Position numbers and translations under genes: made by a program
Assembly: GCA_016930555.1 (NCBI GenBank)
Contig: JAFGGM010000054.1
Location: forward strand, 1 to 57,756
Source: Candidatus Bathyarchaeum sp.
GTDB lineage: Archaea; Thermoproteota; Bathyarchaeia; Bathyarchaeales; Bathyarchaeaceae
DNA: 57,756 bases
Reading direction: 5' to 3'
Shown: piece by piece, positions 29,575 to 46,442 of the stretch
Layout of the letters: every line of letters starts with the position of its first letter
Position numbering within the stretch: the first letter of the stretch is position 1
The notes under the pieces: model-generated
Database searches by the model: none
Told to the model about the DNA's origin: nothing
What the model saw: only the letters and a program-made list of their open reading frames with translations

Positions 29575-29592
29575 AATGAATAAACATTCATT
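29575..29592. promoter_or_regulatory. Palindrome AATGAA-TAAACA-TTCATT upstream of the KaiC-like-1 TATA box (TTTATATA at 29635)
   Basis: Same TGAA-N6-TTCA core at 30892 and 45901 with matching spacing to TATA. Confidence 0.65.
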
Positions 29593-29679
29593 AAATATGA
29601 TTTTGATAAATATATGTTCAGAAAAAAGAAAAGGTTTATATATAAATAATCAATAATCAAAAGATTAATTGAATAAGAG

Positions 29680-30432
29680 GTGGTTAGTGTGACAATTCCA
29701 AGAACAAAAGCTATCGAATGGATTGACATAGGAGTAAAGGGATTGAACGATTTCATTCCCGGCCTACCAAAAGGTGACGCAATTTTGATTCGAGGTGAAC
29801 CAGGTACAGGTAAAACAATCTGCTGTCTACAATTCCTTCATAAAGGAGCAGAACTAGGCGAAAAATGTTTGTACATTACCACTGAAGAAACCCCTGAATC
29901 AGTAATGCGAACTGGAGGAGAACTCTGGTCCGACTTCCCCGACTTAATCAGAGAAGGAACAATACAGGTAATCAACATGTCCATAAGCGCAGAATACGCC
30001 AGCGAATATGGCATACTTGAAAAAGCAGAAGCAATGAGCATTGCCGAAAAAGGATTTGCTGCACAACCCAGGGCAACCAGAATTGTAATTGACTCGCTGT
30101 CTTCCCTTGAGAGGCGCCTGTCTGATTATGAAGAATTCCGAGAAGTCTTTATGAGGTTGCTGCTCGAAACCAAACGCAAAGGAGCAACGGTGATGCTAAC
30201 TGCAGAAGGTATCCCCCTAACTCCGGACATCACCGAATACCTTGTAGACCACTTGATTTATCTTGACTACCGAAAACAAGACAATGAATGGACCCGTGTG
30301 TACATTCTCCGAAAGTCACGAAGTGTACCCTTGAAGCCTCAGATATTAAAGTTAGATATCAATCCAGGCGGTCTATCAGTCGAAGAGACCCCATTCGCGC
30401 TAAATCCTGTGTGGTTCCAAAGTAAAATTTAA
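29680..30432 (+). CDS. Single-domain KaiC/RAD55-like ATPase, paralog 1
   Basis: GEPGTGKT, YITTEE, RIVIDSLS, EYLVD, RKSR. Confidence 0.9.
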   Translation: MVSVTIPRTKAIEWIDIGVKGLNDFIPGLPKGDAILIRGEPGTGKTICCLQFLHKGAELGEKCLYITTEETPESVMRTGGELWSDFPDLIREGTIQVINMSISAEYASEYGILEKAEAMSIAEKGFAAQPRATRIVIDSLSSLERRLSDYEEFREVFMRLLLETKRKGATVMLTAEGIPLTPDITEYLVDHLIYLDYRKQDNEWTRVYILRKSRSVPLKPQILKLDINPGGLSVEETPFALNPVWFQSKI

Positions 30433-30448
30433 GCAAAGAATTGCTACC

Positions 30449-30480
30449 CCTCACATCAACTGTGAGGACTCCCCTTTTTT
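30449..30480 (+). terminator. Hairpin plus T-run after KaiC-like-1
   Basis: CCTCACA-TCAAC-TGTGAGG followed by TTTTTT. Confidence 0.55.
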
Positions 30481-30891
30481 ATTAAACAGGTACGATTGTT
30501 AAACCTTTGCAAGAACGCACGAGTTTGCATGTGCATCCATTAGGGCATGCTGTTGGGTCTTACATTTTTATTTTATCCAAGTTTGGATCTGAAATAGAAA
30601 GCATAACATATTGTGTTCTAGCTGCTAATTGTTGGCAGTGGATTAAATCGTGAGCTGCAGTTGCTGGTTTCACGGTTTGTTTGAGGTCTGTTCGTCTTTT
30701 GAGTTTTCTGTCGTTTGTTCTCCCCCGACCATTTTTTCTGTTTTTAGATGCACAATAAATGTTAATATTTTATCCGTTGGTTATTCATGAGTTTAACAAT
30801 ATTTTTCTAGGTTTGTTTTTTGGCAATTAATTGTGTCTGAATTAATCAATTAAAAACTTTATTGATTAAGATTTAGATTCTGATGCCATAT

Positions 30892-30973
30892 TGAATAAAC
30901 GTTCAGAGTATATAAGTTTGATAACTAAATATTCATCAAAAAGAAAACATTTATATACAAACAGTCAATATTC
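30892..30973 (+). promoter_or_regulatory. Promoter of the kaiC-like-2/amt operon with TGAA-N6-TTCA site and BRE/TATA
   Basis: TGAATAAACGTTCA (30892-905); AAACATTTATATACAAAC (30945-62), identical to the glnA promoter block. Confidence 0.7.
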
Positions 30974-31004
30974 AGCTGTTTAATTGAATAATAGGTGATT
31001 CGAT

Positions 31005-31745
31005 ATGGCAATGCAAAAAACATCAAACATTGAATGGATCGACATCGGATTGGATGGCTTGGAAAACTTTATTCCTGGCATTCCAAAGGGCGACGCAATA
31101 CTGGTTAGAGGTGAACCAGGCACTGGCAAAACAATCTGCTGTCTACAATTCCTTTACAAAGGAGCAAAACAAGGAGAAAAATGTCTATACATTACCACTG
31201 AAGAAACCCCTGAAACAGTAATGCGAACTGGAGGAGAACTCTGGTCCGATTTCCCTAAACTGATACAAAATGGAACAATCAAAGTCGTCAACCTTTCAAT
31301 CACTGCAAGCTACGCCAGCGAATACTGTCTCGTTGACAAAGCTGAAGCCATGGATATCGTTTTCAAAGGCTTAAGGGCACAACCTAATGCCTCAAGAATC
31401 GTAATCGATTCGCTATCTTCACTGGCTAGGCGTTTATCTAACTCTGAACAATTTCGCCAAGTCTTCATGAAAATACTGATGGAAACTAAAGGCAGAGGAG
31501 CAACAACACTATTCAGCGCTGAAGGAATTCCCGAAGCTCCAGGAATCACCGAATACCTTGTAGACCACTTGATTTATCTTGATTACCGAAAACACGACGT
31601 GGTCTGGACACGAGTTTTCCTTCTACGGAAGGCACGAAGTGTACCCATGAAACCTCAAGTATTGAAACTGAACATAAAAGCAGGCGGATTGTCCGTAGAA
31701 GAGATACCGTTCTCGCTTAAGCCTGTTTGGTTCGGCAGTGACTAG
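31005..31745 (+). CDS. Single-domain KaiC/RAD55-like ATPase, paralog 2
   Basis: Same motifs as paralog 1; 38-nt identical block 30229-30266 = 31545-31582. Confidence 0.9.
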   Translation: MAMQKTSNIEWIDIGLDGLENFIPGIPKGDAILVRGEPGTGKTICCLQFLYKGAKQGEKCLYITTEETPETVMRTGGELWSDFPKLIQNGTIKVVNLSITASYASEYCLVDKAEAMDIVFKGLRAQPNASRIVIDSLSSLARRLSNSEQFRQVFMKILMETKGRGATTLFSAEGIPEAPGITEYLVDHLIYLDYRKHDVVWTRVFLLRKARSVPMKPQVLKLNIKAGGLSVEEIPFSLKPVWFGSD

Positions 31746-31756
31746 AAAGGTGATTA

Positions 31757-33079
31757 ATGATGACATTAGATCAAGCAACTGAAACATGGGCAGCGTTTCA
31801 GCAGAACTTCTTCGTAGGATGGGCACCAGTAGCCATCTTCATAATGGCAACTGCAGGCTTCGCCCTGTTCTATGCAGGAATGGTCCGCAAAAAGAACGTC
31901 ACCCATACGATACTTCAAATCAACGTAGGATGGACACTAGCCTTTGTTGTCTACTTCATCATCGGCTTTCCACTAGCGTACTATGTATCGGCTCCAGTAT
32001 TCGGGTTACCGCAGTTTATTCCTACAATAGCCAACCCGTTGCCGCCATTATTGTCTGAAACAGGCGCTTATGGTCTGCCCGCAAGCCCTTCTGGTATTGG
32101 TGACCTTGCAACATGGTTCAAAATGGGGATGTTCGCTATCACCACTGTAGGTATCGTTCCTGGAGGCTTGGCAGAACGTGACAAGTTCTGGGGTTGGATA
32201 CTCGCTGCAGCAGGCATAGCAGGTTTAATCTATCCTGTGGTTGAACACTGGGTTTGGGGTGGAGGCTGGCTATCGGAAATCGGATTTATCGATTACGCAG
32301 GTTCAGGAGTGGTCCACTTGGTTGGAGGAACACTTGCCTTAACAGGTGCATATGTAATTGGTCCAAGGATTGGAAAGTTCGTCGGAGACAAGAAAATACC
32401 AAGAACATTCTTTGGACATAGCATTCCATTGTCTGTGCTCGGTGCATGGCTACTGGCGTTCGGATGGTTCGGCTTCAACGTCGGCTCAAGCGTAGCAGCA
32501 GACCCAATGACAATCAACATAGAACTTGCATGGGTTTCGCTCACCACAGCAATGTGTATGGCTGGAGGAATGTTCGGCGCAGCAATTACCTCAAGGGGTC
32601 ATGTGCTAACAAGCATGGTTGGCTTGCTTGCAGGAGCTGTTGCAATATGTTCCGGTGCTGCAGTCGTTCATCCGCTAGCAGGATTCGTGATTGGAATAAT
32701 CGCTGGAATAATCACAACCTTCACCATAGGCTTCATTGATCACAAGCTACACATCGACGATGCCTTGGGTTGTTTCCCAGTTCACGCAGCATGTGGAATC
32801 TGGGGACTACTTGCAACAGGAATATTTGGTTACACCGCTTTTGGAGCACACCCAATCTATGGATTCGCAGACGTAAGCACATGGATCAGTCAAATCGGAA
32901 TACAGGCAATCGGTGCAGTATCAATACTCGCCTGGGCAGGTGCAATGGGACTGATAATGTTCACTATATTGAAGAAACTAAACCTGCTAAGGGCCACAAG
33001 GGACGAAGAACTATACGGCCTAGACATCGCAATACACAAGACGCTAGCATACCCCGAAGACATGATGGACGACAAATAA
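31757..33079 (+). CDS. amt: Ammonium transporter
   Basis: GFALFYAGMVRKKN, DYAGSGVVH, GWFGFNVGS, IDDALGCFPVH (twin His), EELYGLDIAIH. Confidence 0.96.
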   Translation: MMTLDQATETWAAFQQNFFVGWAPVAIFIMATAGFALFYAGMVRKKNVTHTILQINVGWTLAFVVYFIIGFPLAYYVSAPVFGLPQFIPTIANPLPPLLSETGAYGLPASPSGIGDLATWFKMGMFAITTVGIVPGGLAERDKFWGWILAAAGIAGLIYPVVEHWVWGGGWLSEIGFIDYAGSGVVHLVGGTLALTGAYVIGPRIGKFVGDKKIPRTFFGHSIPLSVLGAWLLAFGWFGFNVGSSVAADPMTINIELAWVSLTTAMCMAGGMFGAAITSRGHVLTSMVGLLAGAVAICSGAAVVHPLAGFVIGIIAGIITTFTIGFIDHKLHIDDALGCFPVHAACGIWGLLATGIFGYTAFGAHPIYGFADVSTWISQIGIQAIGAVSILAWAGAMGLIMFTILKKLNLLRATRDEELYGLDIAIHKTLAYPEDMMDDK

Positions 33080-33087
33080 ACTCCATA

Positions 33088-33112
33088 GCGCCACAACGGC
33101 GCAACCCTTTTT
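33088..33112 (+). terminator. Hairpin plus T-run after amt
   Basis: GCGCC-ACAAC-GGCGC then CCCTTTTT. Confidence 0.5.
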
Positions 33113-33208
33113 CTCATTTTTCTAATTTTTTCTTGAAAACATCTTTCCGAAGCTCTTAAATATTATTTTAAGGAATGACACACTTCAATCTGGTGAGTTG
33201 ATAATCAT

Positions 33209-35956
33209 TTGACGTCACAATCATCTAGACATAAACTAACAATTGTTTTTTTTGTTAACGTAATAATTGTCGCTGTTGCCATTCCCAGCTACTTCTATAG
33301 TATGTCACAAATTCCCGAACCCGCCAGCTTCCAAGTAACAAATTTGGTTTTTGCTTCTGATTGGATTCAAGTTGGGGAATCGCTGCAGCTTTCTGTTAAC
33401 GTAACTAACATTGGAGACCAGACTGGAAACCATTCTGTAACTCTTACAATTGATGGTGAACCAATAACAACTGAAACGGTTCAGCTTTCAGGGTCAGAAA
33501 GCGTAACAGTGGATTTCACTGCAACAGTAATGACTGAAGGAAATCACACTGTCCAAGTCGGAGATTTAGTCGGCTCGGTCAAAGCTACCTCAGATATTCC
33601 CTCCAAGCCTGCTGAATTGGAAGTAACTGATTTGGGCATCAGTCGAGCCATTGCTGAGCCTGGAGAAACCATATTTGTTTCAGCTACTGTAAAAAACGTT
33701 GGAGACGAGAGCGGCAGTTTTGATTTGGACCTTTTTGTTAATGATGAAAAACGGGGTACTCAACCTATTCAGCTTGACGGTAAAGAAACCACAACAGTAC
33801 AATTCAACGTCACTGAGGAAGCTGAAGGAACTTATGTGGTTAAGGTTGGAGACCTCACCAAATCTTTCGAAATCAGTTCCAATGCCCAGCCAGCTAAACC
33901 AGCCGAGTTCCACGTAACCGACTTAACCATTAATCCTTCCTCGGTCATGGCTGGTGAAACTGTGTCAATTTCAGTTAAGGTAACTAATGTCGGAGAGGAA
34001 TCAGGAACCTATACGGTAAACCTAACAATTGACGGCACAATAACAGACACAAGAACTGTCACATTGTCTGGCGCTCAAACCCAGATTATCGACTTTGGTG
34101 CAAATGAAACAACCGTTGGCACCCACACTGTCGAAGTCAGCGGTCAATCCGGAAATTTCATTGTTGAAGCCTCTGTTGCGGCATCAGACAAAATTGACTT
34201 GCAGAGAGTTTTTGTGGCTCCATATGAAGTAGCGGAGGGGGAAACTGTTACAGTAATAGTTAAAGCTAACAACCTTGCAAACGAGGAGTCAGTTCTTGGT
34301 GCAAGACTTCTTGTCGATGGCGAGGTTGTAGATACAAAGACGACCACTTTGCCTATAGGTGAATCTGAAGAAGCCCTTGAATTTACATTCGCAGCAGGTC
34401 CGGCAAACGCTGAAACATTGAAAGGATACTCCATTGAGGTGATAAATCTAGGCAATCAAAGCGACGTCCTGAAAGGATTTTTCATGGTTGCCCCTGATGG
34501 TTTTCACACTTTATCATTTTCTACAAACGCTATCGGTTTAGAATTCACTATCAACGGCATAACTGAGCCTGTGCCATATAGTAAACTCTTGCCAGAGGGA
34601 AGCTACACCATAACCATACCTGATGGCATTGAAGGCGGAGGCACATTCTGGAACTTCACCAGCTGGAATGATGATAAGTCGACAAGCCTCACTAGGACTA
34701 TATACTTAGATCAACGTATTTCTCTAATTGCCGATTTTATGAACTGCAAATCTTGTCCTTCCTTATATGTTTGGAATGGAACCGAATATTTGTACACAGC
34801 TGAAATCTCCGACGGCACAGGCTACTTGGGAATCTTTAACAACTTCCACGAGGACGGAAGCCTAGCCTTCCTTTACAGTGTTCCTTGGGACTACACCAAG
34901 TTAGATTCGAGCCTGCTCCAAACAAATGGAGAATACTATGACATGACGATCAGACAAAACTGGGACGAAATATCATATGTAGATTCTGCTACATTGGTGA
35001 TTGTGGAGCACTCACGTGATGTAGATGTTTATTCAACCAAAGCCACATACCTGTACGAGATTGAAGGACAAGGAACAATCTACACTGTAAACAAAAATCC
35101 TAATTCTCTCATATCATGCATCAACGGAACCGGACACGATATGTTATCCATAGTTTCAGAACGTGACGGAATCACCACTCTTGGCAACGAATTTACATGG
35201 GACACTCTAGAGCTGAATTTAGGTGACCTCTCTGGGGCAGAAGAAATCAAGCTTGTAGTTTCTGGAAGAATAATCTACTCTTCAGGAGAAGAACAAGGGG
35301 CATGGGTTGGACAGTTCTGGGATAAGCCTGGTGAGCAAGCATTTCCCCCTCCTTACATGGAAGTTAAAGACTCTGAAGGCAACTGGGTTCCTGTTCCAGA
35401 TAAACGTCAGTTCCCGTTGTTGGATGTTACACCAGAAATTTTCGTCGTGAATTTGACTGGGCTCTTCCCAACAGATGATTACTCCCTTAGGTTACACACA
35501 TTCTTCAACACCAGATTCGATTACATCGGAGTGGACACAAAATCCCAGCAGGACATAACAATCCGAGAGGTACCAGTTTCCTCTGCAACTTTGTCCCAAG
35601 CTTTCGAAGCCGAATCCAGCTCAACAGGCAACTTCACCCGATACGGAGACGTAACTGAGCTCATGGGAGCTCCAGACGACATGTTTGTGATAATCCGCCA
35701 AGGCGACGAAATACGAATCCTCTTCTCTGCTGATGATGTGGCTGATGTCCCCGAAGGCATGGAACGTGACTTTTTTGTGTTTGCTAGTGTCTGGTTCAAA
35801 GTTGACGGACTTCCTTACGTGCCCTTCGTTGTTGACCCGTTACCCTTCCATGAAATGACCTGTTTCCCTTATCCAGAAACAGAAAGCTATCCATACGATG
35901 CAGCACATCTTGCTTACCTTACGGAATACAACACTAGAATAATCGTTAGCCCATAA
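33209..35956 (+). CDS. Membrane-anchored surface protein with CARDB/Ig-like repeats and a conserved C-terminal domain
   Basis: N-terminal TM; about four repeats GExxxIsvxVxNvGxxxG; then SCPSLYVWNG...G.FTRYGDV...VDPLPFHEM..YP...EYNTR. Confidence 0.85.
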   Translation: MTSQSSRHKLTIVFFVNVIIVAVAIPSYFYSMSQIPEPASFQVTNLVFASDWIQVGESLQLSVNVTNIGDQTGNHSVTLTIDGEPITTETVQLSGSESVTVDFTATVMTEGNHTVQVGDLVGSVKATSDIPSKPAELEVTDLGISRAIAEPGETIFVSATVKNVGDESGSFDLDLFVNDEKRGTQPIQLDGKETTTVQFNVTEEAEGTYVVKVGDLTKSFEISSNAQPAKPAEFHVTDLTINPSSVMAGETVSISVKVTNVGEESGTYTVNLTIDGTITDTRTVTLSGAQTQIIDFGANETTVGTHTVEVSGQSGNFIVEASVAASDKIDLQRVFVAPYEVAEGETVTVIVKANNLANEESVLGARLLVDGEVVDTKTTTLPIGESEEALEFTFAAGPANAETLKGYSIEVINLGNQSDVLKGFFMVAPDGFHTLSFSTNAIGLEFTINGITEPVPYSKLLPEGSYTITIPDGIEGGGTFWNFTSWNDDKSTSLTRTIYLDQRISLIADFMNCKSCPSLYVWNGTEYLYTAEISDGTGYLGIFNNFHEDGSLAFLYSVPWDYTKLDSSLLQTNGEYYDMTIRQNWDEISYVDSATLVIVEHSRDVDVYSTKATYLYEIEGQGTIYTVNKNPNSLISCINGTGHDMLSIVSERDGITTLGNEFTWDTLELNLGDLSGAEEIKLVVSGRIIYSSGEEQGAWVGQFWDKPGEQAFPPPYMEVKDSEGNWVPVPDKRQFPLLDVTPEIFVVNLTGLFPTDDYSLRLHTFFNTRFDYIGVDTKSQQDITIREVPVSSATLSQAFEAESSSTGNFTRYGDVTELMGAPDDMFVIIRQGDEIRILFSADDVADVPEGMERDFFVFASVWFKVDGLPYVPFVVDPLPFHEMTCFPYPETESYPYDAAHLAYLTEYNTRIIVSP

Positions 35957-35992
35957 ACCATGGAGTTAGATTAGCGAGGAGAAAAGAATGGA

Positions 35993-36997
35993 ATGTGGGC
36001 GCTGATAACTCAAATCCTGCTAACAATAATCGCTGGGGGATTAGTTTCGGCTGGAATACTGGCAATACTAATTTGGGTAAGAACTCTGAACCGAAAACTT
36101 AGCATTCTACGCCTATTTGTTCAGATAGTAGCAACGGTCGCAATTTTTGTGACACTTCTTTTCTTGCCGCTTCCGTGGAACCCTATACTTTCTGGTCTCG
36201 TTTTCTCAATAGCATTAAGGCTAACAGCTATTTTTATCTTGATTATCGGCAGTACTCTCATTATTGGGCGTTTCTTCTGTGGATGGCTATGCCCCTTTGC
36301 CCTGTATATGGACCTTCTTACCCGCCTCAGAAAGGCGCTAAGGATACCTTACCTGAATCTTCCTGAAAAACTTAACAATGGTCTCAACATTCTCAGGTAT
36401 TTGCTTTTAGCTGCCATGCTGCTTATGGCTCTTGTCTTAGGTCCTCTAAATGCCGACTTGTGGCGTTTCATAATAATGTTTATGGGTCCATTCAAGTCTT
36501 TAATCATAGTTTTTTTGATTCCCGTGGAACCATACGTTACCCAAATAGGCGACGCTTTAGGATTCCCTGTTTGGGGTACCAGCTTTCATGACCTCAGCGG
36601 AACAATACACTACTTCAACGGCGACCAACTTATTCTCATCACATGGATTGTCTTTTTTGTATTCACAGCAGGCGCCTTCATGGTGAGGTTGCTTTGGTGC
36701 CGATTCTGTCCAGTAGGCGTAACATTATCTGTCCTGAACCGGTTTAAATTCTTCAAGTGGGTGCCCCTCCTTCGCATAAAGAAGATGGAAGAAAAATGCA
36801 CAAAATGTGGAATCTGCAAAAGAGTCTGCCCAACACAGGTCACAGAAGTATACGACCAAAAAGGAGGAAACATTGCCCCTTCAAAGTGTATGCTATGCAT
36901 CCGATGCGTAGAAATGTGCCCCTATGAAGACTGCCTGAAGCTGGACTTTGCTGGCAAAACAATCTATAAATCAAAAAACTGGTTAGAACCACAATAA
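35993..36997 (+). CDS. Membrane 4Fe-4S protein, NapH/MauN-like
   Basis: GRFFCGWLCP, WCRFCPVG, CTKCGICKRVCP, CMLCIRCVEMCP; multiple TMs. Confidence 0.88.
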   Translation: MWALITQILLTIIAGGLVSAGILAILIWVRTLNRKLSILRLFVQIVATVAIFVTLLFLPLPWNPILSGLVFSIALRLTAIFILIIGSTLIIGRFFCGWLCPFALYMDLLTRLRKALRIPYLNLPEKLNNGLNILRYLLLAAMLLMALVLGPLNADLWRFIIMFMGPFKSLIIVFLIPVEPYVTQIGDALGFPVWGTSFHDLSGTIHYFNGDQLILITWIVFFVFTAGAFMVRLLWCRFCPVGVTLSVLNRFKFFKWVPLLRIKKMEEKCTKCGICKRVCPTQVTEVYDQKGGNIAPSKCMLCIRCVEMCPYEDCLKLDFAGKTIYKSKNWLEPQ

Positions 36998-37011
36998 ATC
37001 CGTCAGTTTGT

Positions 37012-37326
37012 TTATGTCTTTTTTGATAGCGCCTTCAATGTTCCAGAGACACCCAACACATGAACAGCTTCAGCTTTACTATCTATGACCGTGGTTGAAG
37101 CAATGGCAGCTCTAACCTGCTCAAGAGCCTTGTGGGAACAACAAAGAACAATCTGTCCCTTCTCTGGACGCTTTCTTATCAATCTTACGTTTGCTTTGCT
37201 GGCGCCGTATTCGCCGAAGAGTCTGTGAATTGATGCTTGAACCGCATCGAGTACTGCCTCTTCACTGGGAAGCTGTTCGCCTACGACTGCTAGCGCCAAG
37301 TAACGTCTTTTTTCGCGTTTAAGCAT
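37012..37326 (-). CDS. rnp2: RNase P protein Pop5/Rpp14
   Basis: REKRRYL...LFGEYG...GVSGTLK. Confidence 0.9.
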   Translation of the reverse strand: MLKREKRRYLALAVVGEQLPSEEAVLDAVQASIHRLFGEYGASKANVRLIRKRPEKGQIVLCCSHKALEQVRAAIASTTVIDSKAEAVHVLGVSGTLKALSKKT

Positions 37327-38490: not shown

Positions 38491-38608
38491 AACCTACCTC
38501 ACACTCTTTCTGAACTCTATTACACACAACTTGATATAGCTATCTCAAACACAACATAAGCAAACAAAAAGGAAAGAATGGTTGTTGAGTGCCTCCAATA
38601 AACAGAGA

Positions 38609-39172
38609 CTACTGCTTGATTCTTCTTTTCATAACTGCATTGCGGCTTGGTCGGAATTTCTCTGCTCCCAATCCTCTGTTGCGGAGTCCCCGCACTTCTC
38701 TGCCTGCGCTAGTTATTCCACGGAATGCTCGTCCTGTCTGGTCTGCTATTGGATGATCAGGAAGAATTGCTGGGTCAACCAAAATGATTTCGTACCATTT
38801 GAAGCGGCCATCTTCCCAAACCCAATATGAGTTTAGAACTTCCAAGTTCGGGAACTTTCTGGCTGCCCGCTCCTCAGCGATTAATCTCATGTTTTTGGAA
38901 AGTTTGATTTTGTTTACTCCCAACCGTTTCTGTCTGCGTCCGCCAGTTGGTCTTGTTTTTCTGAAGCCAGAACGTCTGACCCGCACCCGAGCCAAAACAA
39001 TGCCCTGTTTGGCTTTGTAGCCAAGGTTTCTTGCTCTGTCCAGTCGGGTTGGTCTTTCGATTCTTACAATAGAGTCTTGTTTGCGCCAAGTTATGGCTCT
39101 ATGCCACATTAGCTCCTTGACAAAGGATTCATTCGGCTTTTTCCACGCCTTTGCAATATACTTGTATGCCAT
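38609..39172 (-). CDS. rpl15e: 50S ribosomal protein eL15
   Basis: [42 protein letters not shown]. Confidence 0.97.
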
Positions 39173-39190
39173 ATTTCATTCCTCTCATTC

Positions 39191-39230
39191 GTTCGGTTCA
39201 ACCCTATGTAGGGTCACATCCCATAGGAAC
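39191..39230 (-). promoter_or_regulatory. Candidate structured 5' leader of rpl15e
   Basis: Sense strand GTTC-CTATGGGATGTG-ACCCT-ACAT-AGGGT-TGAACC-GAAC forms a nested stem-loop just before the RBS. Confidence 0.45.
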
Positions 39231-39393
39231 TTGTAGCAAAAGAAACAAAGACAGTTAATAAACCTTTTCCGCACACTTTGGGACTTTTATGTGTACTTTC
39301 GGGGGCTTCTCTATTTTTTTCTGAATAACATTAAACCGTCTATTGTTGTTGTAACATATTCGAATCCGGATTGTACTAATGCTTTTATCATGA

Positions 39394-39819
39394 TTAGACA
39401 ACAGCGGATAAGATTGAGATAATTACAAGTGGTAATCCCGTAAACATAAGCAGAAGTCCTGTTGAAATTTGGTTTTCACGAAATTCTGTTCGTTGCTTTG
39501 ACAGTTTTTCGGTAACATAAGCTGTAGAAGGAGCTTTTGCTGATTGAATTCTGCCTTCTGCATATCCGCCCGCAAGCATGGCACCGGTTCCAATTATCAA
39601 AGCCCCTTCGATAAACAATAAGGAACTTAAAGTTGTTTTTTCTTCATTTCCAAAAATCCATGCTGCAGTTAACCTGATTTGAGTGCCATAAAGAACTACT
39701 GCAATTAGGTCAATAACAAATATCAAGACGTTAAAAAACACTATTATGGTTATGGCTTTTTTCCACCCTGATATATTCTTCAATTGAATAAACACAACTG
39801 AGCGCGTGCTCATAATCAA
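39394..39819 (-). CDS. Hypothetical membrane protein
   Basis: Three hydrophobic segments. Confidence 0.65.
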   Translation of the reverse strand: MIMSTRSVVFIQLKNISGWKKAITIIVFFNVLIFVIDLIAVVLYGTQIRLTAAWIFGNEEKTTLSSLLFIEGALIIGTGAMLAGGYAEGRIQSAKAPSTAYVTEKLSKQRTEFRENQISTGLLLMFTGLPLVIISILSAVV

Positions 39820-40120
39820 CTAGAATTGGGTATGGATTTAATTTTTATGACGTATTACTTTCATCAAAATCTTTTGTAATCTGCCCAGAACCCCACGCAA
39901 ACGAATTAAAAATTTGATAGTACACATTTGGGTTTGGGAGTTAAATTCTAATTCCATAACTATGAAAAACAAATTCTAATTAGTTCTAGAATTATGCACC
40001 ATAGCTCTTTATAGCATAGATTTAACAATAGATTATTGGGGAAAGTAGAAATCAGAAGTTAGATTTCGGATTGCGGGAGAATAGTGGAGACATTGCCACT
40101 TCACTTGGAATAAACCTTTT

Positions 40121-40795
40121 TCAAGCTTTGTTCACAAGCTTAACTTCTTTGATTGTGAGGACTCCACTGTTGTTTTCATAGCTTGTTTCAGAGTCTACTA
40201 TTTGGAGGCGTTTTTTGTAGATTGGAGCATCCAGAACTAGTGACTCATATTCTCCCCCTTCGCCCACCAAACTAATCTGATATTTTTCGTGGAGTTCCAC
40301 AAGCTTCTCTAGTGTTTCTGTGTTTATTTCTCGCCCCAGCCACGTTTGATCCAAACCGTAAGCATACACTCCAACCAGTATGACCCTGAATTTGAGGCGA
40401 ATCAAATCTTTCATTATTTCCAGCGCGTCTTGATGCCAAAGGGGAGCAATAGACTTGAGTCCCAACTCATCGCATAATCGGTCGATTCGTTCTTTCTGGT
40501 ATGTAGACTGCACCGCTCCAGTTACTACTCCATCCACGTCAAGGGACGCAAGCAATTTCTTGAGGTCTTCAAGTTCCTTCTCTTTTATTCCAGAGGTTTC
40601 AGCTTTAACCAACGGAATCTCAAGCGTCCTAGCTATATAGTCTGTCAAATGAATGTTGGGAACATGGAACATGTAGCTATCAGAGCGTTTGGGAAGCATG
40701 GTAGCTAAGATTTCTATGGTGTGCCCTATCTGCTGGGCTTGATAAAGAGCAAGAATCGAATCCTTTCCCCCAGTAATTAATGCTGCCAACCGCAA
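40121..40795 (-). CDS. dph6: Diphthine-ammonia ligase (Dph6 family)
   Basis: TGGKDS, DSYMFH, GAVQSTYQ, PLWH, GEGGEYESLVLDAP. Confidence 0.88.
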   Translation of the reverse strand: MRLAALITGGKDSILALYQAQQIGHTIEILATMLPKRSDSYMFHVPNIHLTDYIARTLEIPLVKAETSGIKEKELEDLKKLLASLDVDGVVTGAVQSTYQKERIDRLCDELGLKSIAPLWHQDALEIMKDLIRLKFRVILVGVYAYGLDQTWLGREINTETLEKLVELHEKYQISLVGEGGEYESLVLDAPIYKKRLQIVDSETSYENNSGVLTIKEVKLVNKA

Positions 40796-40826
40796 CTTCT
40801 ATGCACTCTACTGTTCGCTTTTCAGT

Positions 40827-42185
40827 TCACATATTCTTTGCTTTCTCAACTATCTGTCTGGTCTTTTCTTCCCACTCTGCAAGTCCTTCAGGTGAAGGTG
40901 GATAATTCCTATGCAGTTCCTTGGTTTCTGTCATGAGTTTAGCGGTGGTATTCAACTTTCTTAGAAGAGACAAACATCCAACTCCTTTGAAGAGTCTGCT
41001 AGTTTTCTCAGTTATATTCAGTTTCAGGTCTTCGCCCATGCTTGCCTTAAGTAAGTCATCGTCAGTGATCAGGTGGTGCTGCATTCCATAATTCATTTCC
41101 TTGTTGGTCAACCGTTGAAGAAGCATACGGAAAACGTCCAACCCAGCCTGTTTTGCGCCATAAAATTCCATGAACATGCCAGTGTATGGCCAAAGAACCT
41201 CTCTGCTCACATCCCCCTTCTCCAAGGCGCCTACGATGACTTCTGCAGCTTTTACTCCCCCCATCATCGAGGAACCTATTCCACCCCCGTGAATCGGATT
41301 AACTTGGCAAGCAGCATCGCCAATAATTATGATTCCGTTTGCTACCATGGGACTTATGGGTCTTCGGGTAGGAACAAGACCTCCCCCGCCAGTTAACAGC
41401 TGTGAATCTTTAAAAAGCGTCATAGATAAAACATATTCATGATACAGTTGCTTCGGATTAGGGAAACCTTTGGTCATGGCTACACCTAAACCTGCATTAA
41501 CTATGTTTGAGTTTTTGGGAAAAATCCAGCAGTACCCTCCTGGAAACCGCTGCAGATCAAGGTAGATTTTACAGTATCCAGGCTCCGAAATCTGCTCTTT
41601 TACTTCGCGGATTTCGCGGTAACAAATCTCCACATCCTCATCTGCAACTTCTGCTTCTATGCCAAATTCTGGAGGAAGCTTTTTTCTTAAAACTGCTGAA
41701 TGTCCACTTGCATCCACAACTACCTGAGCACGTATTTCATTCTTTTCGCCAGTTACTGTGTCCTTAACTGAGACGCCAGCGACAAAATCGTCGTTTATGA
41801 TTGGATTTGTTACCATGATGGAGTCCATCAGGGTTGCTCCCGTATCTTTTGCTTCTTTCAATAGTCTTTGACCAAAAAGTTGACGATTAACTAGATATCC
41901 GTGGACGCCCTCCCCCTGAACAGTGACGATGGTTTCCATGTCAGGTGAATAAACTTTAATTCCGTCTATTTTTTGCTCCAGTTCCTTTCCTGAGGGAGGA
42001 GCCAGCTTTATGTTATCAAAATGATGCTTTCCTATGGCGTCCCCACAGACTTTGTCTCCTATCTTCTGCTCTGGCTTCTGATCGATCATGCAGACTTTAA
42101 GTCCCGCTTTGGCAACAGTTTTGGCTGTCAAGCAGCCTCCTGTTCCAGCGCCTACAACTATAACATCAAATTTATTCAATGGCAT
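40827..42185 (-). CDS. Geranylgeranyl reductase (DGGGPL reductase family)
   Basis: VVGAGTGG, KVCGD, GYCWIFPK, GDAACQVNPIHGGGI. Confidence 0.92.
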   Translation of the reverse strand: MPLNKFDVIVVGAGTGGCLTAKTVAKAGLKVCMIDQKPEQKIGDKVCGDAIGKHHFDNIKLAPPSGKELEQKIDGIKVYSPDMETIVTVQGEGVHGYLVNRQLFGQRLLKEAKDTGATLMDSIMVTNPIINDDFVAGVSVKDTVTGEKNEIRAQVVVDASGHSAVLRKKLPPEFGIEAEVADEDVEICYREIREVKEQISEPGYCKIYLDLQRFPGGYCWIFPKNSNIVNAGLGVAMTKGFPNPKQLYHEYVLSMTLFKDSQLLTGGGGLVPTRRPISPMVANGIIIIGDAACQVNPIHGGGIGSSMMGGVKAAEVIVGALEKGDVSREVLWPYTGMFMEFYGAKQAGLDVFRMLLQRLTNKEMNYGMQHHLITDDDLLKASMGEDLKLNITEKTSRLFKGVGCLSLLRKLNTTAKLMTETKELHRNYPPSPEGLAEWEEKTRQIVEKAKNM

Positions 42186-42360
42186 TCTTCTCCAGCTTCT
42201 AGTTTGTTATTCTGCCTGAAAAGGGCTTCATAACTCTTGCGATGTTTAAGGAAAATCGTGACGGATTAAATTAAGGTTTTTAGCTGGTCAAGGGCTCATA
42301 GAAACGGTTTCAGTTGAGTTGTAAATTGTGCCCAAGTGGTTGCCTAACTGAGAAACTATG

Positions 42361-43242
42361 TTAAGATAAGCAGTTTTCGTCGCACTTGTTTGCTTTGAAT
42401 TTGTCCCAGCAATGTACTATGTCCCTCATCAGCTCTGGCTGCAAATCATAGAAAACATTTATTCTTCCTTCTGGGAAGAACATTCTAATGCTAATCTCTC
42501 GCCCAAGCCTGTCCATGCTTAGCATACTTGCCTCAGGCTTCTTTGGTAGAATATCCTTGTATTTTTCGTAGAATTTGTTAATTGTTGGCTTAATACAGTC
42601 TTCAATCATCTGTTTGTTTGTTCTGTGGTCTAGATGTGGAAATCCCATTTTGAAGGAGTAGTCGATTAAATTCTTCCTTCCAGAGTAGTTGATTATGATG
42701 CTATCTAACACTTTCTTGTTGGGTATCTCTGTGATGTTGTATGTTGGCGTGTAGATTTTGGTGTAATTGATGGTTATCTCTTTAACTTCGCCCTCAACAT
42801 CTCCTATTTTCACGTAGTCCCTAACCATGAACGGTCTGGAAATCATGATGTAAAAACCCGCCAGGAAGTTACCTAATGTTTGAGTTGATGCAAAGCCTAT
42901 GGCTGTTCCTGTTAAAGCTCCACCTGCAAGAAACAAATCAGTAGGCACATTGAATAGAACCAAAACCGAAATTAAGGCGCCTGTAGCGACAAGCAATCTA
43001 ACAACCAACTTCAGAATGTTGATTGCATGAGGCTCCATATTTACCCGTTTTCCATACTTGCCTATTGACCTGCGAAGAACCTTGTCAAGAATAAAAGCAA
43101 CAACAAGTATAATTATTAATATACCAAAATCAAGTAGCAACTCTTCTGTTGGTGTTAATTGACCAAATATTTTGGTCCAAAATCCTTCATTTACTGTTGA
43201 GTTGTCTGCTGTTAGAAACATGGGAACTTTGGTACACTCCAT
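42361..43242 (-). CDS. MscS-family mechanosensitive channel
   Basis: AIGFASTQTLGNFLAG...RPF..DYVKIG..GEV..I...T.I.T..IPN. Confidence 0.9.
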   Translation of the reverse strand: MECTKVPMFLTADNSTVNEGFWTKIFGQLTPTEELLLDFGILIIILVVAFILDKVLRRSIGKYGKRVNMEPHAINILKLVVRLLVATGALISVLVLFNVPTDLFLAGGALTGTAIGFASTQTLGNFLAGFYIMISRPFMVRDYVKIGDVEGEVKEITINYTKIYTPTYNITEIPNKKVLDSIIINYSGRKNLIDYSFKMGFPHLDHRTNKQMIEDCIKPTINKFYEKYKDILPKKPEASMLSMDRLGREISIRMFFPEGRINVFYDLQPELMRDIVHCWDKFKANKCDENCLS

Positions 43243-43372
43243 TTATGGAGGAGATTGTGAGATTTTAGTTAAACAAAAACCTTTCTATACCCCTACAAAA
43301 TGCGTACAAGAAAAGAAAGCAATAATTAAGACCTAGCAAATCACAAACTTGACCTAGAAGAGAGATAAAGAC

Positions 43373-43693
43373 ATGCCAGAAACGCTTCGAGTAAAAACAT
43401 GGCAACAATTCAAGGAGTTAGCCCACGAAAAGAATGCAAAAACTGTTGTTTATGTTATCGCCCAGAGTGTTCCAGCTAGAAACCACACTGGACTAAAACT
43501 TATCTTACCTTTTGCTGGTGGTCAGTATATATTCACTGATACAGCTAAAGGCGATAAAATGAGAAGAACAAGAATATCCGTCCGTACTGACAGCAAAGGA
43601 AACCATTTCCTCACAGACCAAGATATAATAAACTTTCTTAAAACAAATCTGGAAATTAACGGACTAAAAATTTTTTCATACTGGACAGCTTAA
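43373..43693 (+). CDS. Hypothetical protein
   Basis: 106-aa ORF filling the gap, normal composition. Confidence 0.65.
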   Translation: MPETLRVKTWQQFKELAHEKNAKTVVYVIAQSVPARNHTGLKLILPFAGGQYIFTDTAKGDKMRRTRISVRTDSKGNHFLTDQDIINFLKTNLEINGLKIFSYWTA

Positions 43694-43741
43694 AAAATCT
43701 GCCGTTTTCAAGAATAATTGAGTAATAAAAAAGGTTGGTTG

Positions 43742-43762
43742 TCGGGTCGATAATTGACCCGA
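43742..43762 (-). terminator. Hairpin after the glnA operon
   Basis: TCGGGTC-N7-GACCCGA followed on the minus strand by CCTTTTT. Confidence 0.5.
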
Positions 43763-43807
43763 TTATGTTACTTTCTGTTTGATATTGTTTCGTGCAGTTG
43801 GTATTAG

Positions 43808-44068
43808 CTAAGGAATGAACATCGATAGTAAAGTTTCTGTGCGAACTACGCTGGGATGTGCCTCAATCATCTCGTAGATAATATGTGTCAATTGCTCGGA
43901 ATTGTCTGCTTCTATTATTGCTATTGCATCGAATCTTCCCAGAACAGAATTGGCCAGCGTTACGCCCTTTATCTTTCTGGATTGTACGATCTCCTCTGAT
44001 GTTCCAGGTCTCATAGTCAAGAGTACGAAGGCTCTGATTTTTTTGCTGCGGAGATCTTTTGTAGCCAT
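43808..44068 (-). CDS. Stand-alone Lrp/AsnC ligand-binding (RAM) domain protein 2
   Basis: AFVLL...SVLGRFDAIAIIEA...VVRTETL; no HTH. Confidence 0.88.
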   Translation of the reverse strand: MATKDLRSKKIRAFVLLTMRPGTSEEIVQSRKIKGVTLANSVLGRFDAIAIIEADNSEQLTHIIYEMIEAHPSVVRTETLLSMFIP

Positions 44069-44084
44069 TGTGTTTCTCTCCTCT

Positions 44085-44315
44085 CTAGAAGAGCGTGATT
44101 GCAGTTTCGGTGTGGACGATGTTGGGGTCCTTCTCGATTACTTTGTATACGAACTCATTAAGTGTTTCTAAGTCTGGAGCTTCTAAGACAACTATGACGT
44201 CATGTCTGCCGTACACAGAGTCGGCATGTAGAACGTTTTCGAACCGCATTCGGATGGCTTTAACTACATCTTCAGATGTTCCAGGTCGAGTTTCAATTAG
44301 CAGGTATGCTTTCAT
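44085..44315 (-). CDS. Stand-alone Lrp/AsnC ligand-binding (RAM) domain protein 1
   Basis: MKAYLLI...SVYGRHDVIVVLEA...IVHTETAI; no HTH. Confidence 0.88.
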   Translation of the reverse strand: MKAYLLIETRPGTSEDVVKAIRMRFENVLHADSVYGRHDVIVVLEAPDLETLNEFVYKVIEKDPNIVHTETAITLF

Positions 44316-44343
44316 GCTTATTCACCTCTCCATATTTTACAGT

Positions 44344-45813
44344 TTAATAGTCTAGATATTTCATTATTTCCCACGGAGTGACATAGAGGCAGTACTGGTT
44401 CCAGTCTTTGGTCTTGTAGTCAATGAAGGCATCGAATATGTGACTGCCAAGTGCCTTATGAACAACCTCATCGCTCTGCATAGACTCTAGAGCATCCCTC
44501 AATGTTGTAGGCAACTCTTTGATGCCTAATGCACGTCTTCTTTCAGAGCTCAACTCGTAAACGTCTTCGTCAATTGGGTCTCCTGGATCAATTTTATTCT
44601 TTATTCCATCAAGTCCAGCCATGAGTATACACGCAAGTGATAGGTACGAGTTACATGATGGATCAGCAGCACGTAACTCAGCTCGTTTGGCTGCAGCATG
44701 TTCTGGACCTTTAAAGTATACAGGAACACGTACCATAGCTGACCGGTTGCGGCGGGACCACATTATGAAAATGGGTGCTTCAAAACCTGGTACAAGTCTC
44801 TTGTAGGAGTTTACTGTTGGGCAGTTTATTGCGGTTATGGCTCTAGCGTGTTCTAACAATCCTCCAATGAAGTATCTGCCTGTCTGACTCATTTCGGCAT
44901 ATTCGTCAGCTTCATCATACATCGCATTCGTCTTTCCCTTCCACAGGGATGCGTGAACGTGCATGCCGCTGGCATTGTCAAGGTAAACTGGTTTAGGCAT
45001 GAAAGTTGCAATCAATCCATGCTTCTTTGCGATGTTTTTGGCTACGAACTTGTAGTAGAGTGTTCGGTCAGCGGTTTTCACCAATTCGCCATATTTGAAG
45101 TCGATTTCAATTTGTCCTGCAGTGGCGACTTCGTGGTGGTGCATTTCGATTTCTGTGTCAAAGTTTTCTTCTAGCAGTGTAGCAACTTCGTTTCGGTACT
45201 CAACAGTTGTGTCTTCTGGTGGCGGTCTGAAGTATGCTTCTTTTGGCCTTAATATATGAGCCCCTGGAGTGGTTTCTGGCGATTTTGGTACAACTCGGGG
45301 CGCTCCCCATGAGTCTCCTGCACCACCTTTCGGGCTAACCCACATGTCCCAGACAAGGTTTGTTGGATCAATAGAGCTGAAGACGAAGTATTCTAGTTCT
45401 GGACCGAAAAAACCTGTGTATCCCATGTCTGCTGCTGCTTGGACCGCTCTTTTAGCTACGTATCCTCTTGGGTCTACGTCAGAAGCTTCTGTGCCTCCAT
45501 AGGCTTCATAGACGTCTCCTAGGATTATAGCACTTTTCTGCATATCGTCGGTTGTCCATGGTATAATTGCTAGTGTGTCAGGGTTTGGTTTGAGGATCAT
45601 GTCTGATTCTTCGATGGTTTTGAATCCCCGTACTGATGATCCGTCAAAACCGATGCCTGCGGTTAGTGCTTGTCCCTCCGTGTAGTGTCTTGCGGGTAGC
45701 ACTACGTCCTGCATCAGACCTCGGATGTCTACGAAGGCTGTGTGTACCCACCTGATTTTGTTTTTCTTTAGTGTTTCTCTGGCTTTTGTAATAGCCTCCA
45801 TGTTATTCACCAT
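44344..45813 (-). CDS. glnA: Glutamine synthetase type I
   Basis: FDGSS, GPELE, HHEVATAGQIE, TFMPKP..NASGMHVH, NSYKRLVPGFEAP, RNRS, ELRAADP. Confidence 0.97.
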   Translation of the reverse strand: MVNNMEAITKARETLKKNKIRWVHTAFVDIRGLMQDVVLPARHYTEGQALTAGIGFDGSSVRGFKTIEESDMILKPNPDTLAIIPWTTDDMQKSAIILGDVYEAYGGTEASDVDPRGYVAKRAVQAAADMGYTGFFGPELEYFVFSSIDPTNLVWDMWVSPKGGAGDSWGAPRVVPKSPETTPGAHILRPKEAYFRPPPEDTTVEYRNEVATLLEENFDTEIEMHHHEVATAGQIEIDFKYGELVKTADRTLYYKFVAKNIAKKHGLIATFMPKPVYLDNASGMHVHASLWKGKTNAMYDEADEYAEMSQTGRYFIGGLLEHARAITAINCPTVNSYKRLVPGFEAPIFIMWSRRNRSAMVRVPVYFKGPEHAAAKRAELRAADPSCNSYLSLACILMAGLDGIKNKIDPGDPIDEDVYELSSERRRALGIKELPTTLRDALESMQSDEVVHKALGSHIFDAFIDYKTKDWNQYCLYVTPWEIMKYLDY

Positions 45814-45831
45814 TCATTCAACTTAACTTGA

Positions 45832-45915
45832 GAATATTACAAGTTTGTATATAAATGTTTCTAACATGTTGAAGGAAAGCTTATATACATCTTCTGTTAA
45901 TGAACAAGTATTCAT
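45832..45915 (-). promoter_or_regulatory. glnA promoter with TGAA-N6-TTCA site (divergent from lrp)
   Basis: 45843-60 is the reverse complement of AAACATTTATATACAAAC; ATGAA-CAAGTA-TTCAT at 45900-15. Confidence 0.7.
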
Positions 45916-45941
45916 GTTAAGACAAAAACCTAAAATTTGTT

Positions 45942-46442
45942 ATGACCAATTATTCAATAAAAGGAGGAAATACTAAACTGAATAGCGAATCACCACATAA
46001 AGTGGACGAAATAGACCAAAAAATCATACGCCTACTACAAGATGATGCCCGAAAAAGCTTCAACAAAATAGCTGAGAGCCTAGGAATAGCAGTTGGAACA
46101 GCATACAACCGCGTAAAAAACTTGGAGGACAAAGGAATCCTGAAGGGTTACACCATATTGCTGGATTCCGCTAAACTTGGTTACGGCCTAACTGCCTTAA
46201 TACTTATTGAGGCTGAGGGACGATTTCTTCCCGACGTTGAAAAGGCTCTAGCCAAGTTGGATGAGGTTATATGCATTTATGACATCACCGGAGACTATGA
46301 CGTGGCTGTGGTTGCTCGTTTCAAGGACAGAACTACATTGAATAGCTTCATCAAATCAGCACTGAAGATGCCCCATGTAAGCAGAACAGTCACAAACGTT
46401 GTGCTCAATGTTGTCAAGGAAGACTTCAGAGTAAAAGTGTAA
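45942..46442 (+). CDS. Lrp/AsnC family transcriptional regulator
   Basis: DEIDQKII..LQDDARKSF..IA..LG....TAYNRV..LE..GIL; YDITGDYD. Confidence 0.93.
   Translation: MTNYSIKGGNTKLNSESPHKVDEIDQKIIRLLQDDARKSFNKIAESLGIAVGTAYNRVKNLEDKGILKGYTILLDSAKLGYGLTALILIEAEGRFLPDVEKALAKLDEVICIYDITGDYDVAVVARFKDRTTLNSFIKSALKMPHVSRTVTNVVLNVVKEDFRVKV

Follow-up and report, generated by a model that had tools for sequence, protein, structure and literature searches.

Genes and sites around glnA, amt and lrp

The window analyzed here comprises 57,756 nucleotides (nt) of Candidatus Bathyarchaeum sp. (GenBank contig JAFGGM010000054.1, forward strand, positions 1 to 57,756) and is contig C59 of a draft genome of 1.14 Mb, which is divided among 80 contigs, is 84% complete and has a G+C content of 42.8%. 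Genes for a glutamine synthetase (glnA), an ammonium transporter (amt) and two KaiC-like ATPases were identified in it whose promoters share a palindrome of the form TGAA-N6-TTCA, together with a gene for a regulator of the Lrp/AsnC family (FFRP) that is divergent from glnA. From this arrangement an earlier note on the same DNA had proposed a nitrogen regulon governed by the Lrp protein or by a factor resembling NrpR. The palindrome is the subject of this report, and it is probably an operator of the divergently encoded Lrp. The genes concerned are as follows.

29680 to 30432, plus strand: kaiC-like-1 (kaiC1 below), a single-domain KaiC/RecA-type ATPase of 250 residues (Pfam PF06745, 1.3e-42)
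31005 to 31745, plus strand: kaiC-like-2 (kaiC2 below), a single-domain KaiC-like ATPase (Pfam PF06745, 1.3e-43)
31757 to 33079, plus strand: amt, ammonium transporter (Pfam PF00909, 3.3e-96)
43808 to 44068, minus strand: stand-alone RAM gene (Lrp/AsnC ligand-binding domain), 86 residues, 3' of glnA
44085 to 44315, minus strand: stand-alone RAM gene, 76 residues, directly 3' of glnA
44344 to 45813, minus strand: glnA, type I glutamine synthetase (Pfam; TIGR00653, 582 bits)
45942 to 46442, plus strand: lrp, full-length Lrp/AsnC regulator (Pfam HTH_24/HTH_AsnC plus AsnC_trans_reg), divergent from glnA

The genes kaiC-like-2 and amt, with a gap of 11 nt between them, are presumed to form one operon (31005 to 33079). 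The true start of glnA is likely to be the ATG at 45801, which has GGTGA 5 nt upstream, rather than 45813. The start of lrp is uncertain: a strong GGAGG (45964 to 45968) is followed by ATA, where most relatives have ATG, and an in-frame ATG lies upstream at 45942.

The sites identified in the three promoter regions are listed below, S1 and S2 being the distal and proximal palindromes. Promoters and transcript starts are predicted ones.

29577 to 29590, unstranded: S1 of kaiC-like-1, TGAATAAACATTCA, 44 nt upstream of the TATA box
29607 to 29620, unstranded: S2 of kaiC-like-1, TAAATATATGTTCA, one mismatch, centre 30 bp from that of S1
29630 to 29642, plus strand: TFB recognition element (BRE) and TATA block of the putative kaiC-like-1 promoter, with TTTATATA at 29635 to 29642
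29669 to 29673, plus strand: TTGAA of kaiC-like-1, where the transcript should start, 26 nt after the TATA box
30892 to 30905, unstranded: S1 of kaiC-like-2/amt, TGAATAAACGTTCA, 44 nt to TTTATATN
30922 to 30935, unstranded: S2 of kaiC-like-2/amt, TAACTAAATATTCA, two mismatches, 30 bp from S1, right half ATTCA
30945 to 30973, plus strand: BRE/TATA and downstream ATTC half-site of kaiC-like-2/amt, with TTTATATA at 30950 to 30957; a 29-nt stretch held in common with glnA
30984 to 30988, plus strand: TTGAA of kaiC-like-2, 26 nt after the TATA box
45817 to 45821, minus strand: TTGAA of glnA, 26 nt after the glnA TATA box
45832 to 45860, minus strand: BRE/TATA and ATTC half-site of glnA, with TTTATATA at 45855 to 45848; an invariant block in 17 genus genomes
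45870 to 45888, unstranded: half-site CCTTCA, on the glnA strand 13 nt before ATTTATAT; on the plus strand this is the BRE/TATA of lrp, GGAAAGCTTATATAC
45901 to 45914, unstranded: main palindrome TGAACAAGTATTCA, 45 nt upstream of the TATA box of glnA; its consensus in the genus, read along the glnA strand, is TGAACACTTGTTCA
45943 to 45956, unstranded: copy with one mismatch, TGACCAATTATTCA, within the leader or initial codons of lrp and 42 bp from the main palindrome

The three full palindromes and the one-mismatch copy lie where the earlier note had placed them, and the distances it gave to the BRE/TATA block (39, 39 and 40 nt) were recovered, corresponding to 44, 44 and 45 nt to TTTATATN. 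At kaiC-like-2/amt the TTCA of S2 ends 13 nt before ATTTATAT. The main palindrome at glnA starts 12 nt downstream of the TATA-like box of the divergent lrp gene. In the one-mismatch copy only the ATTCAA half is widely kept, the TTGAA half being present, as judged by eye, in 14 of 17 aligned rows of the genus. In archaea, transcription begins about 25 nt past the TATA box. Metatranscriptome contigs from four studies, belonging to relatives that are mostly less than 95% alike, were found on glnA and on lrp from 45925 onward, and none on 45854 to 45924, a gap from which no conclusion is drawn; they show that both genes occur in RNA libraries, and contigs of this kind cannot reveal transcript starts.

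Specificity and conservation of the promoter layout

Taken by itself, TGAA-N6-TTCA is too frequent to be a meaningful signal and was rejected as such. In the window it is not above chance (5 sites against a mean of 3.13, with at least 5 in 22 of 100 shuffles), and of its 59 sites in the genome, compared with 21 for the reversed control, 41 fall in coding DNA according to crude open reading frame (ORF) calls. The constraint seen from relatives is a 14-bp palindrome, TGAAYA-NN-TRTTCA, a consensus read from the listed instances. This refined pattern was derived on sequences of the genus and then tried on more distant loci of the same order. In the form TGAAYANNTRTTCA it has five exact sites in the genome, all five intergenic, and none for the reversed control. 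It is the tightened palindrome, together with its fixed position, that rises above chance, and the position matters more.

Boxes of the type TTTATATN (TTTATAT) number 152 in the genome; TTGAA follows 26 nt downstream in only four, and all four have the palindrome 44-45 nt upstream. The full layout was identified at exactly four promoters of this genome, namely those of kaiC-like-1, kaiC-like-2/amt, glnA and a gene on contig C46 (C46:402-1483) for a Dph6-like PP-loop ATP pyrophosphatase (112.6 bits, under the Dph6 cut-off of 197), which is followed by an ORF of 127 residues with no known family. The combination TTCA-N13-ATTTATAT has only three occurrences in the genome, at the promoters of kaiC-like-2/amt, glnA and the Dph6-like gene. 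Since the Dph6-like gene is unrelated to kaiC and glnA, duplication of kaiC does not account for the layout they share, a point which the earlier note had made for the glnA match and which this fourth promoter, carrying the whole layout, substantiates. There are two Dph6-like genes in the genome, the true Dph6 being that at 40121 to 40795 of the window. The one with the nitrogen-type promoter may be an ammonia-dependent ligase for a different substrate.

The earlier note had also reported an 18-mer, followed by N4-AATATTC, common to the amt-operon and glnA promoters. This 29-nt pattern has exactly two matches in the window, 30945-30973 on the plus strand and 45832-45860 on the minus strand, and 0 of 100 shuffles gave any match, even at three mismatches. 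The exact identity of the 18-mer is limited to this genome and is not a conserved trait; in relatives the two promoter families share the consensus GAAAnnTTTATATACAAA instead.

A copy of TTTATATACAAA at C41:17677 has no palindrome at that place. Three further exact sites of the refined motif were kept apart from the nitrogen regulon. One, at C56:41532, lies 29 nt before an aminotransferase gene, inside an aromatic amino-acid operon. The other two, C37:7489 at a Fer4/DsrE locus and C57:10616 at a ZIP locus, look different and form a class of their own, ATGAATAWWTATTCAT. This second class of perfect palindromes (C37:7473-7502 and C57:10616-10629), often near a TATAAC-N3-GTTATA repeat, was found at a divergent Fer4/DsrE pair, where it is kept in many genus genomes, and on the 3' side of a ZIP transporter gene; it probably represents another regulon with a similar half-site.

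Within the genus, the glnA palindrome has no mismatch in 21 of 21 genus-like lrp-glnA loci. An alignment of the glnA-lrp region from 17 genus genomes revealed four invariant blocks between spacers that are free to vary: the palindrome, the lrp TATA box with the CTTCA half-site (ATATAA..TTT.CTTCA at 45870 to 45888), the sequence GAAA..TTTATAT..AAA..TGTAATA, and TGAAT.AA.GGTG. Upstream of kaiC2/amt, TGAA-N6-TTCA occurs at the same place in 13 of 16 loci; two of the exceptions stand directly behind kaiC1 and have no promoter of their own, and the third is minus the left half. The kaiC1 promoters have TGAA-N6-TTCA at the S1 position in 16 of 17 orthologous loci, with S2 (two mismatches or fewer) exactly 30 bp downstream in 12 of the 17. 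For the Dph6-like gene, a site with at most one mismatch was found in 17 of the 18 best-matching loci, the eighteenth having TGAA-N6-TTCA, and in 3 of 10 weaker paralogue matches.

The KaiC-like proteins are 72% identical to each other, and the arrangement kaiC1-(amt2)-kaiC2-amt is genus-wide, amt2 being a second ammonium transporter gene of relatives whose product is about 30% identical to that of amt. The amt2 promoters carry up to three full palindromes, two of them upstream of the TATA box and 30 bp apart, the third immediately after the TATA box, 40 bp further on, and then TTGAAY. In the window, the corresponding space is a non-coding gap of 570 nt between kaiC1 and kaiC2 (30433 to 31004), in which no remnant of amt2 was detected; nor was amt2 found elsewhere in this 84%-complete genome. 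Some relatives hold amt2 in this gap, and in others kaiC1 and kaiC2 are 25 nt apart.

Beyond the genus, an lrp homolog was present in the flank of 26 of 30 GlnA loci of relatives, and a divergent glnA at 51 of 80 loci found through Lrp. Among distant lrp-glnA loci (Lrp identity below 75%, n = 30), the best pattern match had no mismatch in 16 and one mismatch in 8, the corresponding fractions in shuffles of the same loci being 0.0002 and 0.006; in these loci the palindrome mostly lies 44-47 nt from the TATA box, and the TATA box mostly 24-27 nt from TTGAA. Once the motif is tightened, the refuting condition of the earlier note (a motif common at unrelated promoters or absent from orthologous amt/glnA promoters) does not apply: it is kept at orthologous glnA promoters (all of the genus-like loci and 24 of the 30 distant ones at one mismatch or fewer) as well as at those of kaiC2/amt and kaiC1. 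A strict composite pattern (palindrome, N40-50, TTWATAT) was identified in 18 of 201 genomes of the class, the reversed pattern in 0 of 201, and the layout is therefore a feature of this order and not of the whole class. In all nine pattern-positive genomes outside the genus the pattern adjoins, by its coordinates, the start of an lrp homolog.

Candidate regulators of the palindrome

The palindrome is probably an operator of the Lrp encoded next to glnA, which would autoregulate lrp and, by way of several phased sites placed around the TATA box, control a small regulon for nitrogen assimilation. Co-regulation of amt and glnA by the Lrp or an NrpR-like factor, as put forward in the earlier note, thereby gains support, and the sequence evidence favours the divergent Lrp. 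This was evaluated with 40 loci of lrp homologs in genomes at least 90% complete, of which 39 came from 38 genomes outside the genus and one was a second copy in genome G023; the 39 are rows with at least 52% identity, two others having been dropped with the gene abutting a contig end. A palindrome with at most one mismatch lies within 240 nt upstream of lrp in 19 of the 40 loci. Because 14 of these 19 are in genomes, at least 90% complete, that have no NrpR hit, and 7 have no adjacent glnA, the element follows lrp rather than NrpR or glnA. Wherever the palindrome was found, the helix-turn-helix (HTH) segment GI(A/S)VGTA(Y/F)N is conserved across this clade of Lrp proteins.

The form and arrangement of the sites also fit Lrp-type operators in several respects. 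Archaeal Lrp sites are described as imperfect inverted repeats of 13-17 bp with an AT-rich centre, which cluster on one helix face with their centres 2-3 helical turns apart, higher oligomers wrapping approximately 100 bp (PMC2995911). The site studied here is a 14-bp inverted repeat whose centre is mostly A/T in the listed instances, and a second site lies 30 bp away at kaiC1, kaiC2 and amt2. By its position 12 nt after the TATA-like box, where the lrp transcript should begin, the main palindrome is also a candidate own-gene site of lrp. Autoregulation is commonly marked by such a site over the start of the gene for the regulator itself.

Based on profile searches, the best NCBIfam match of the Lrp is the haloarchaeal Lrp family NF041396, with 121.6 bits, below the cut-off of 190, so that orthology to this equivalog family is only a candidate. 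Its closest solved relatives are 8q90 (1.9e-28), which from its acidic sequence looks haloarchaeal, and FL11 of Pyrococcus (7.8e-27), with Grp of Sulfolobus lower (4e-19). The TGDYD motif of the RAM domain is common to this Lrp, FL11 and 8q90.

Four known Lrp-type systems were compared with the one described here. In Halobacterium salinarum Lrp is reported to activate glnA, and lrp is next to glnA in many haloarchaea (PMC8229911; target table in PMC2995911); as in this genome, a full-length lrp stands beside and opposite glnA there, in H. salinarum and in Haloferax mediterranei (HFX_RS01210). The present case differs in belonging to another phylum, in having a defined operator, for which the haloarchaeal account cited gives no sequence to compare, a fixed promoter position and further targets (kaiC-like/amt and the Dph6-like gene), and in the two RAM-domain genes behind glnA. 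Sa-Lrp of Sulfolobus acidocaldarius, according to the cited account, binds its own promoter and the control regions of glnA, gltB and gdhA, glutamine driving octamer formation and DNA wrapping (PMC3584215). It is likewise an Lrp-type protein of the Thermoproteota tied to nitrogen assimilation, but is portrayed as an abundant architectural protein of low specificity, in contrast to the sharp palindrome at very few promoters found here. In this genome, no intergenic palindrome with at most two mismatches was listed near the gene with a Glu_synthase domain at C7.

FL11 (PH1519) was crystallized on TGAAA[AAT]TTTCA (PMC2715240). Its 13-bp site TGAAAWWWTTTCA resembles the one described here in a half-site beginning with TGAA and an AT-rich centre, and its organism also has stand-alone RAM (DM1-like) proteins beside the full-length regulator. 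Its own promoter is reported to contain several sites, a long stretch being covered by the octamer with ligand bound and single sites by the dimer (PMC2995911; PMC2715240). FL11 differs in spacing (5-3-5 versus 5-4-5), in the fifth base (A versus a pyrimidine), in residues 35, 36 and 39 (E, S and H versus V, G and Y in this Lrp) and in its role, which is a response to lysine and control of lysine synthesis rather than of nitrogen uptake. Ptr2 of Methanocaldococcus jannaschii, which binds at its own gene and, at its target, has two sites in regular spacing upstream of the TATA box (PMC2995911), has a comparable arrangement; it is unlike the present case in its site (GGACGA..TCGTCC), in its targets (ferredoxin and rubredoxin) and in having no sites downstream of the TATA box, as far as that source describes it. 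Activation of glnA by haloarchaeal Lrp and the binding of Sa-Lrp to glnA promoters are known already.

In the mechanism proposed, TGAAYA-NN-TRTTCA would be the high-affinity operator of the Lrp/FFRP encoded divergently from glnA, and each target promoter would carry S1 at 44-47 nt upstream of the TATA box, a weaker S2 that is 30 bp nearer and abuts the BRE, S3 as a site or an ATTC half-site just past the TATA box, and a TTGAAY half-site at the expected transcript start. The regulon would consist of glnA with its two RAM genes, kaiC-like-1, kaiC-like-2/amt, the second amt of relatives and the Dph6-like PP-loop gene. Lrp would hold S1 tightly and S2 cooperatively, upstream of the BRE and TATA box of its targets, where dimers at the two sites may help TBP (TATA-binding protein) and transcription factor B (TFB) to bind, in the manner of Ptr2, which reportedly activates by TBP recruitment. 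A ligand-dependent octamer spanning S1 to S4 would enclose and wrap the TATA box, thereby closing the promoter. Since the same palindrome sits between the TATA box and the start site of lrp, Lrp would repress its own gene. We infer Lrp binding, its sign and its ligand (glutamine or another amino acid); the assignment of oligomeric states to activation and repression, and the ligand, cannot be deduced from sequence.

Several points weigh against the Lrp as the binding protein. Residues F24, A34, V35, G36, T37 and Y39 occupy the DNA-contact positions according to the mapping in the FL11 paper, and T37/A34, V35/F24 and Y39 are consistent with a T at a and an A at both c and d; the pattern leaves Gly36, the G at b and the pyrimidine at e unexplained. 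The site is an even 14-mer (5-4-5), a 13-bp version being found in one lineage only (L027), and its spacing is one base longer than the 5-3-5 form, abcdeWWWe'd'c'b'a', which is said to fit all FFRPs studied by SELEX (the systematic evolution of ligands through exponential enrichment; PMC2715240). Gene calls outside the window are crude longest-ORF calls, the promoter and start-site positions were assigned from TATA-like boxes alone, and the relatives share ancestry, so that counts across them overstate independence. Furthermore, the genome contains 10 RAM-domain ORFs, at least two of which are in longer, Lrp-like frames, and another paralog could therefore be the binder.

It is from this last point that the strongest alternative arises, in which a different Lrp paralog or a factor of an unrelated family binds the palindrome and the divergent lrp is one more target. 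The near-identical ATGAATAWWTATTCAT palindromes at non-nitrogen loci, conserved in relatives, are in its favour, since they imply that the half-site serves more than one circuit or a more global factor. The position of the palindrome over the lrp start region is nevertheless kept across families, and the HTH segment of the neighbouring Lrp is kept wherever the palindrome occurs. On balance this alternative appears unlikely.

The other regulator named in the earlier note, NrpR, does have a homolog in this genome (C27:14200-15195), which contains HTH_12 and one NRD domain and matches PDB 3nek at 7.5e-23. It lies 45 nt behind a gene for a B12-binding radical SAM protein (C27:12722-15195 for the pair). 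A TFB gene is divergent from this pair, and both genes have everted GTTCA..TGAAC repeats upstream. No literature linking Bathyarchaeia to NrpR was found, the one paper mentioning both being, by its title, a general review of methanogens. Under this explanation the palindrome would be a variant of the NrpR operator GGAA-N6-TTCC with T and A as outer bases, and the nitrogen genes and lrp would be repressed until 2-oxoglutarate rises. The 4-6-4 geometry and the GAA/TTC core are indeed those of the methanogen operator, and the regulon content (glnA and amt) corresponds to that given for methanococci, namely nif, glnK-amtB and glnA (PMC2723118). NrpR occurs in 23 of 24 genus genomes and is enriched where the composite pattern is present (12 of 18 genomes plus one fragment, versus 20 of 201 genomes of the class above the cut-off), and the amt2 promoters have a full palindrome just past the TATA box. 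Also counted in its favour is that the canonical GGAA-N6-TTCC is not seen at nitrogen genes here. It has 42 sites in the genome, four of them intergenic, and neither of the two examined is near a nitrogen gene: the neighbour of the clean palindrome at C55:4830 is an EF-1beta gene, and C60:878 is in a stretch without a called gene, the remaining two (C12:415 and C59:15423) being outside that examination.

Against this, the outer bases are T and A, not G and C, in every instance at the four promoters. Methanococcal NrpR operators overlie the start site. Here the palindrome lies past the TATA box, toward the start, at lrp and in the third amt2 site, but 44-45 nt upstream of the TATA box at glnA, kaiC1, kaiC2 and the Dph6-like gene, and the strongest site at glnA and kaiC/amt is 44-47 nt upstream. 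Nor is NrpR found in every genome that keeps the operator: the palindrome persists beside lrp in the 14 genomes without an NrpR hit mentioned above, NrpR is missing from five genomes (94-100% complete) of the 18 with the composite pattern and is present only as a fragment in a sixth, and seven NrpR-bearing genomes of the class do not have the composite pattern. Moreover, the site tracks lrp also where glnA is not adjacent. The NrpR homolog is a weaker candidate than the divergent Lrp, and its identity as the factor acting at these sites is quite improbable.

Finally, it is hardly credible that the shared layout reflects descent or gene conversion of a promoter cassette, or an RNA element of the 5' leader, instead of a common regulator: the kaiC1 and kaiC2 promoters are clearly duplicates, glnA and kaiC2 share the identical 18-mer in this genome, and TTGAAT lies at the predicted mRNA 5' end, but the glnA, kaiC and Dph6-like promoters are dissimilar between conserved blocks, their spacers vary freely among species, the 18-mer identity is lost in relatives, the kaiC duplication is older than the genus (as the protein identity indicates) with its sites still palindromic, and an Rfam scan of the promoter leaders gave no family at E up to 1.

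P-II, KaiC-like ATPases and the RAM genes

A gene for P-II (GlnB/GlnK) was not found in this genome or in any of 24 genus genomes (0 of 25). A search of 16 other genomes of the order identified it in only one, beside an amt gene. Each amt is preceded by a gene for a KaiC-like ATPase, kaiC1-amt2 and kaiC2-amt1 (genomes G007 and G022), and a KaiC-like partner may stand in for GlnK. A complex prediction for Amt and KaiC-like-2 scored 0.00, which is no verdict, neither for nor against binding. No description of an archaeal operon pairing KaiC with an ammonium transporter was found in the literature, judged by title and abstract.

The two stand-alone RAM genes behind glnA, separated by 11-49 nt in the genus, each have a Shine-Dalgarno-like sequence, and a hairpin with a T-run lies 3' of them. 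Across the order, almost every related locus with sufficient flanking sequence has them 3' of glnA. The closest solved relatives of their products are stand-alone AsnC-type proteins of 75-83 residues (DM1-like), and the two proteins may sense amino acids for Lrp or for glutamine synthetase.

A more far-reaching reading, which we put forward tentatively and regard as doubtful, is that Candidatus Bathyarchaeum has a nitrogen-control circuit free of P-II, built from RAM-domain proteins, with KaiC-like ATPases in the role of GlnK and an ancient lrp-glnA-RAM-RAM unit. Mixed oligomers of Lrp with the two DM1-like RAM proteins, whose genes would be transcribed together with glnA, would form in a ligand-dependent manner on four phased sites, placed on both sides of the TATA box at a few promoters, and the KaiC-like ATPases paired with amt would be the cytoplasmic partner or gate of the ammonium transporter instead of GlnK. 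The divergent lrp and glnA-RAM-RAM genes would constitute an ancient archaeal unit, kin to the haloarchaeal lrp-glnA pair.

Elsewhere in the window, a weak match to the eL15-Euryarchaeota ribosomal-protein leader was recorded at 39190 to 39231 on the minus strand (27.2 bits, gathering score 33.7, E 0.19). The match, immediately 5' of the L15e gene (38609 to 39172), would fall outside the namesake taxon of the family.

Bathyarchaeia rank among the most abundant archaea in anoxic sediments, and to our knowledge very little is known about their gene regulation. The analysis yields a specific cis-element, a few target genes that can be listed and one candidate regulator identified by name. A lineage without P-II may still coordinate ammonium uptake with glutamine synthesis, and the finding suggests that the lrp-glnA pairing of haloarchaea is far older and more widespread than assumed.

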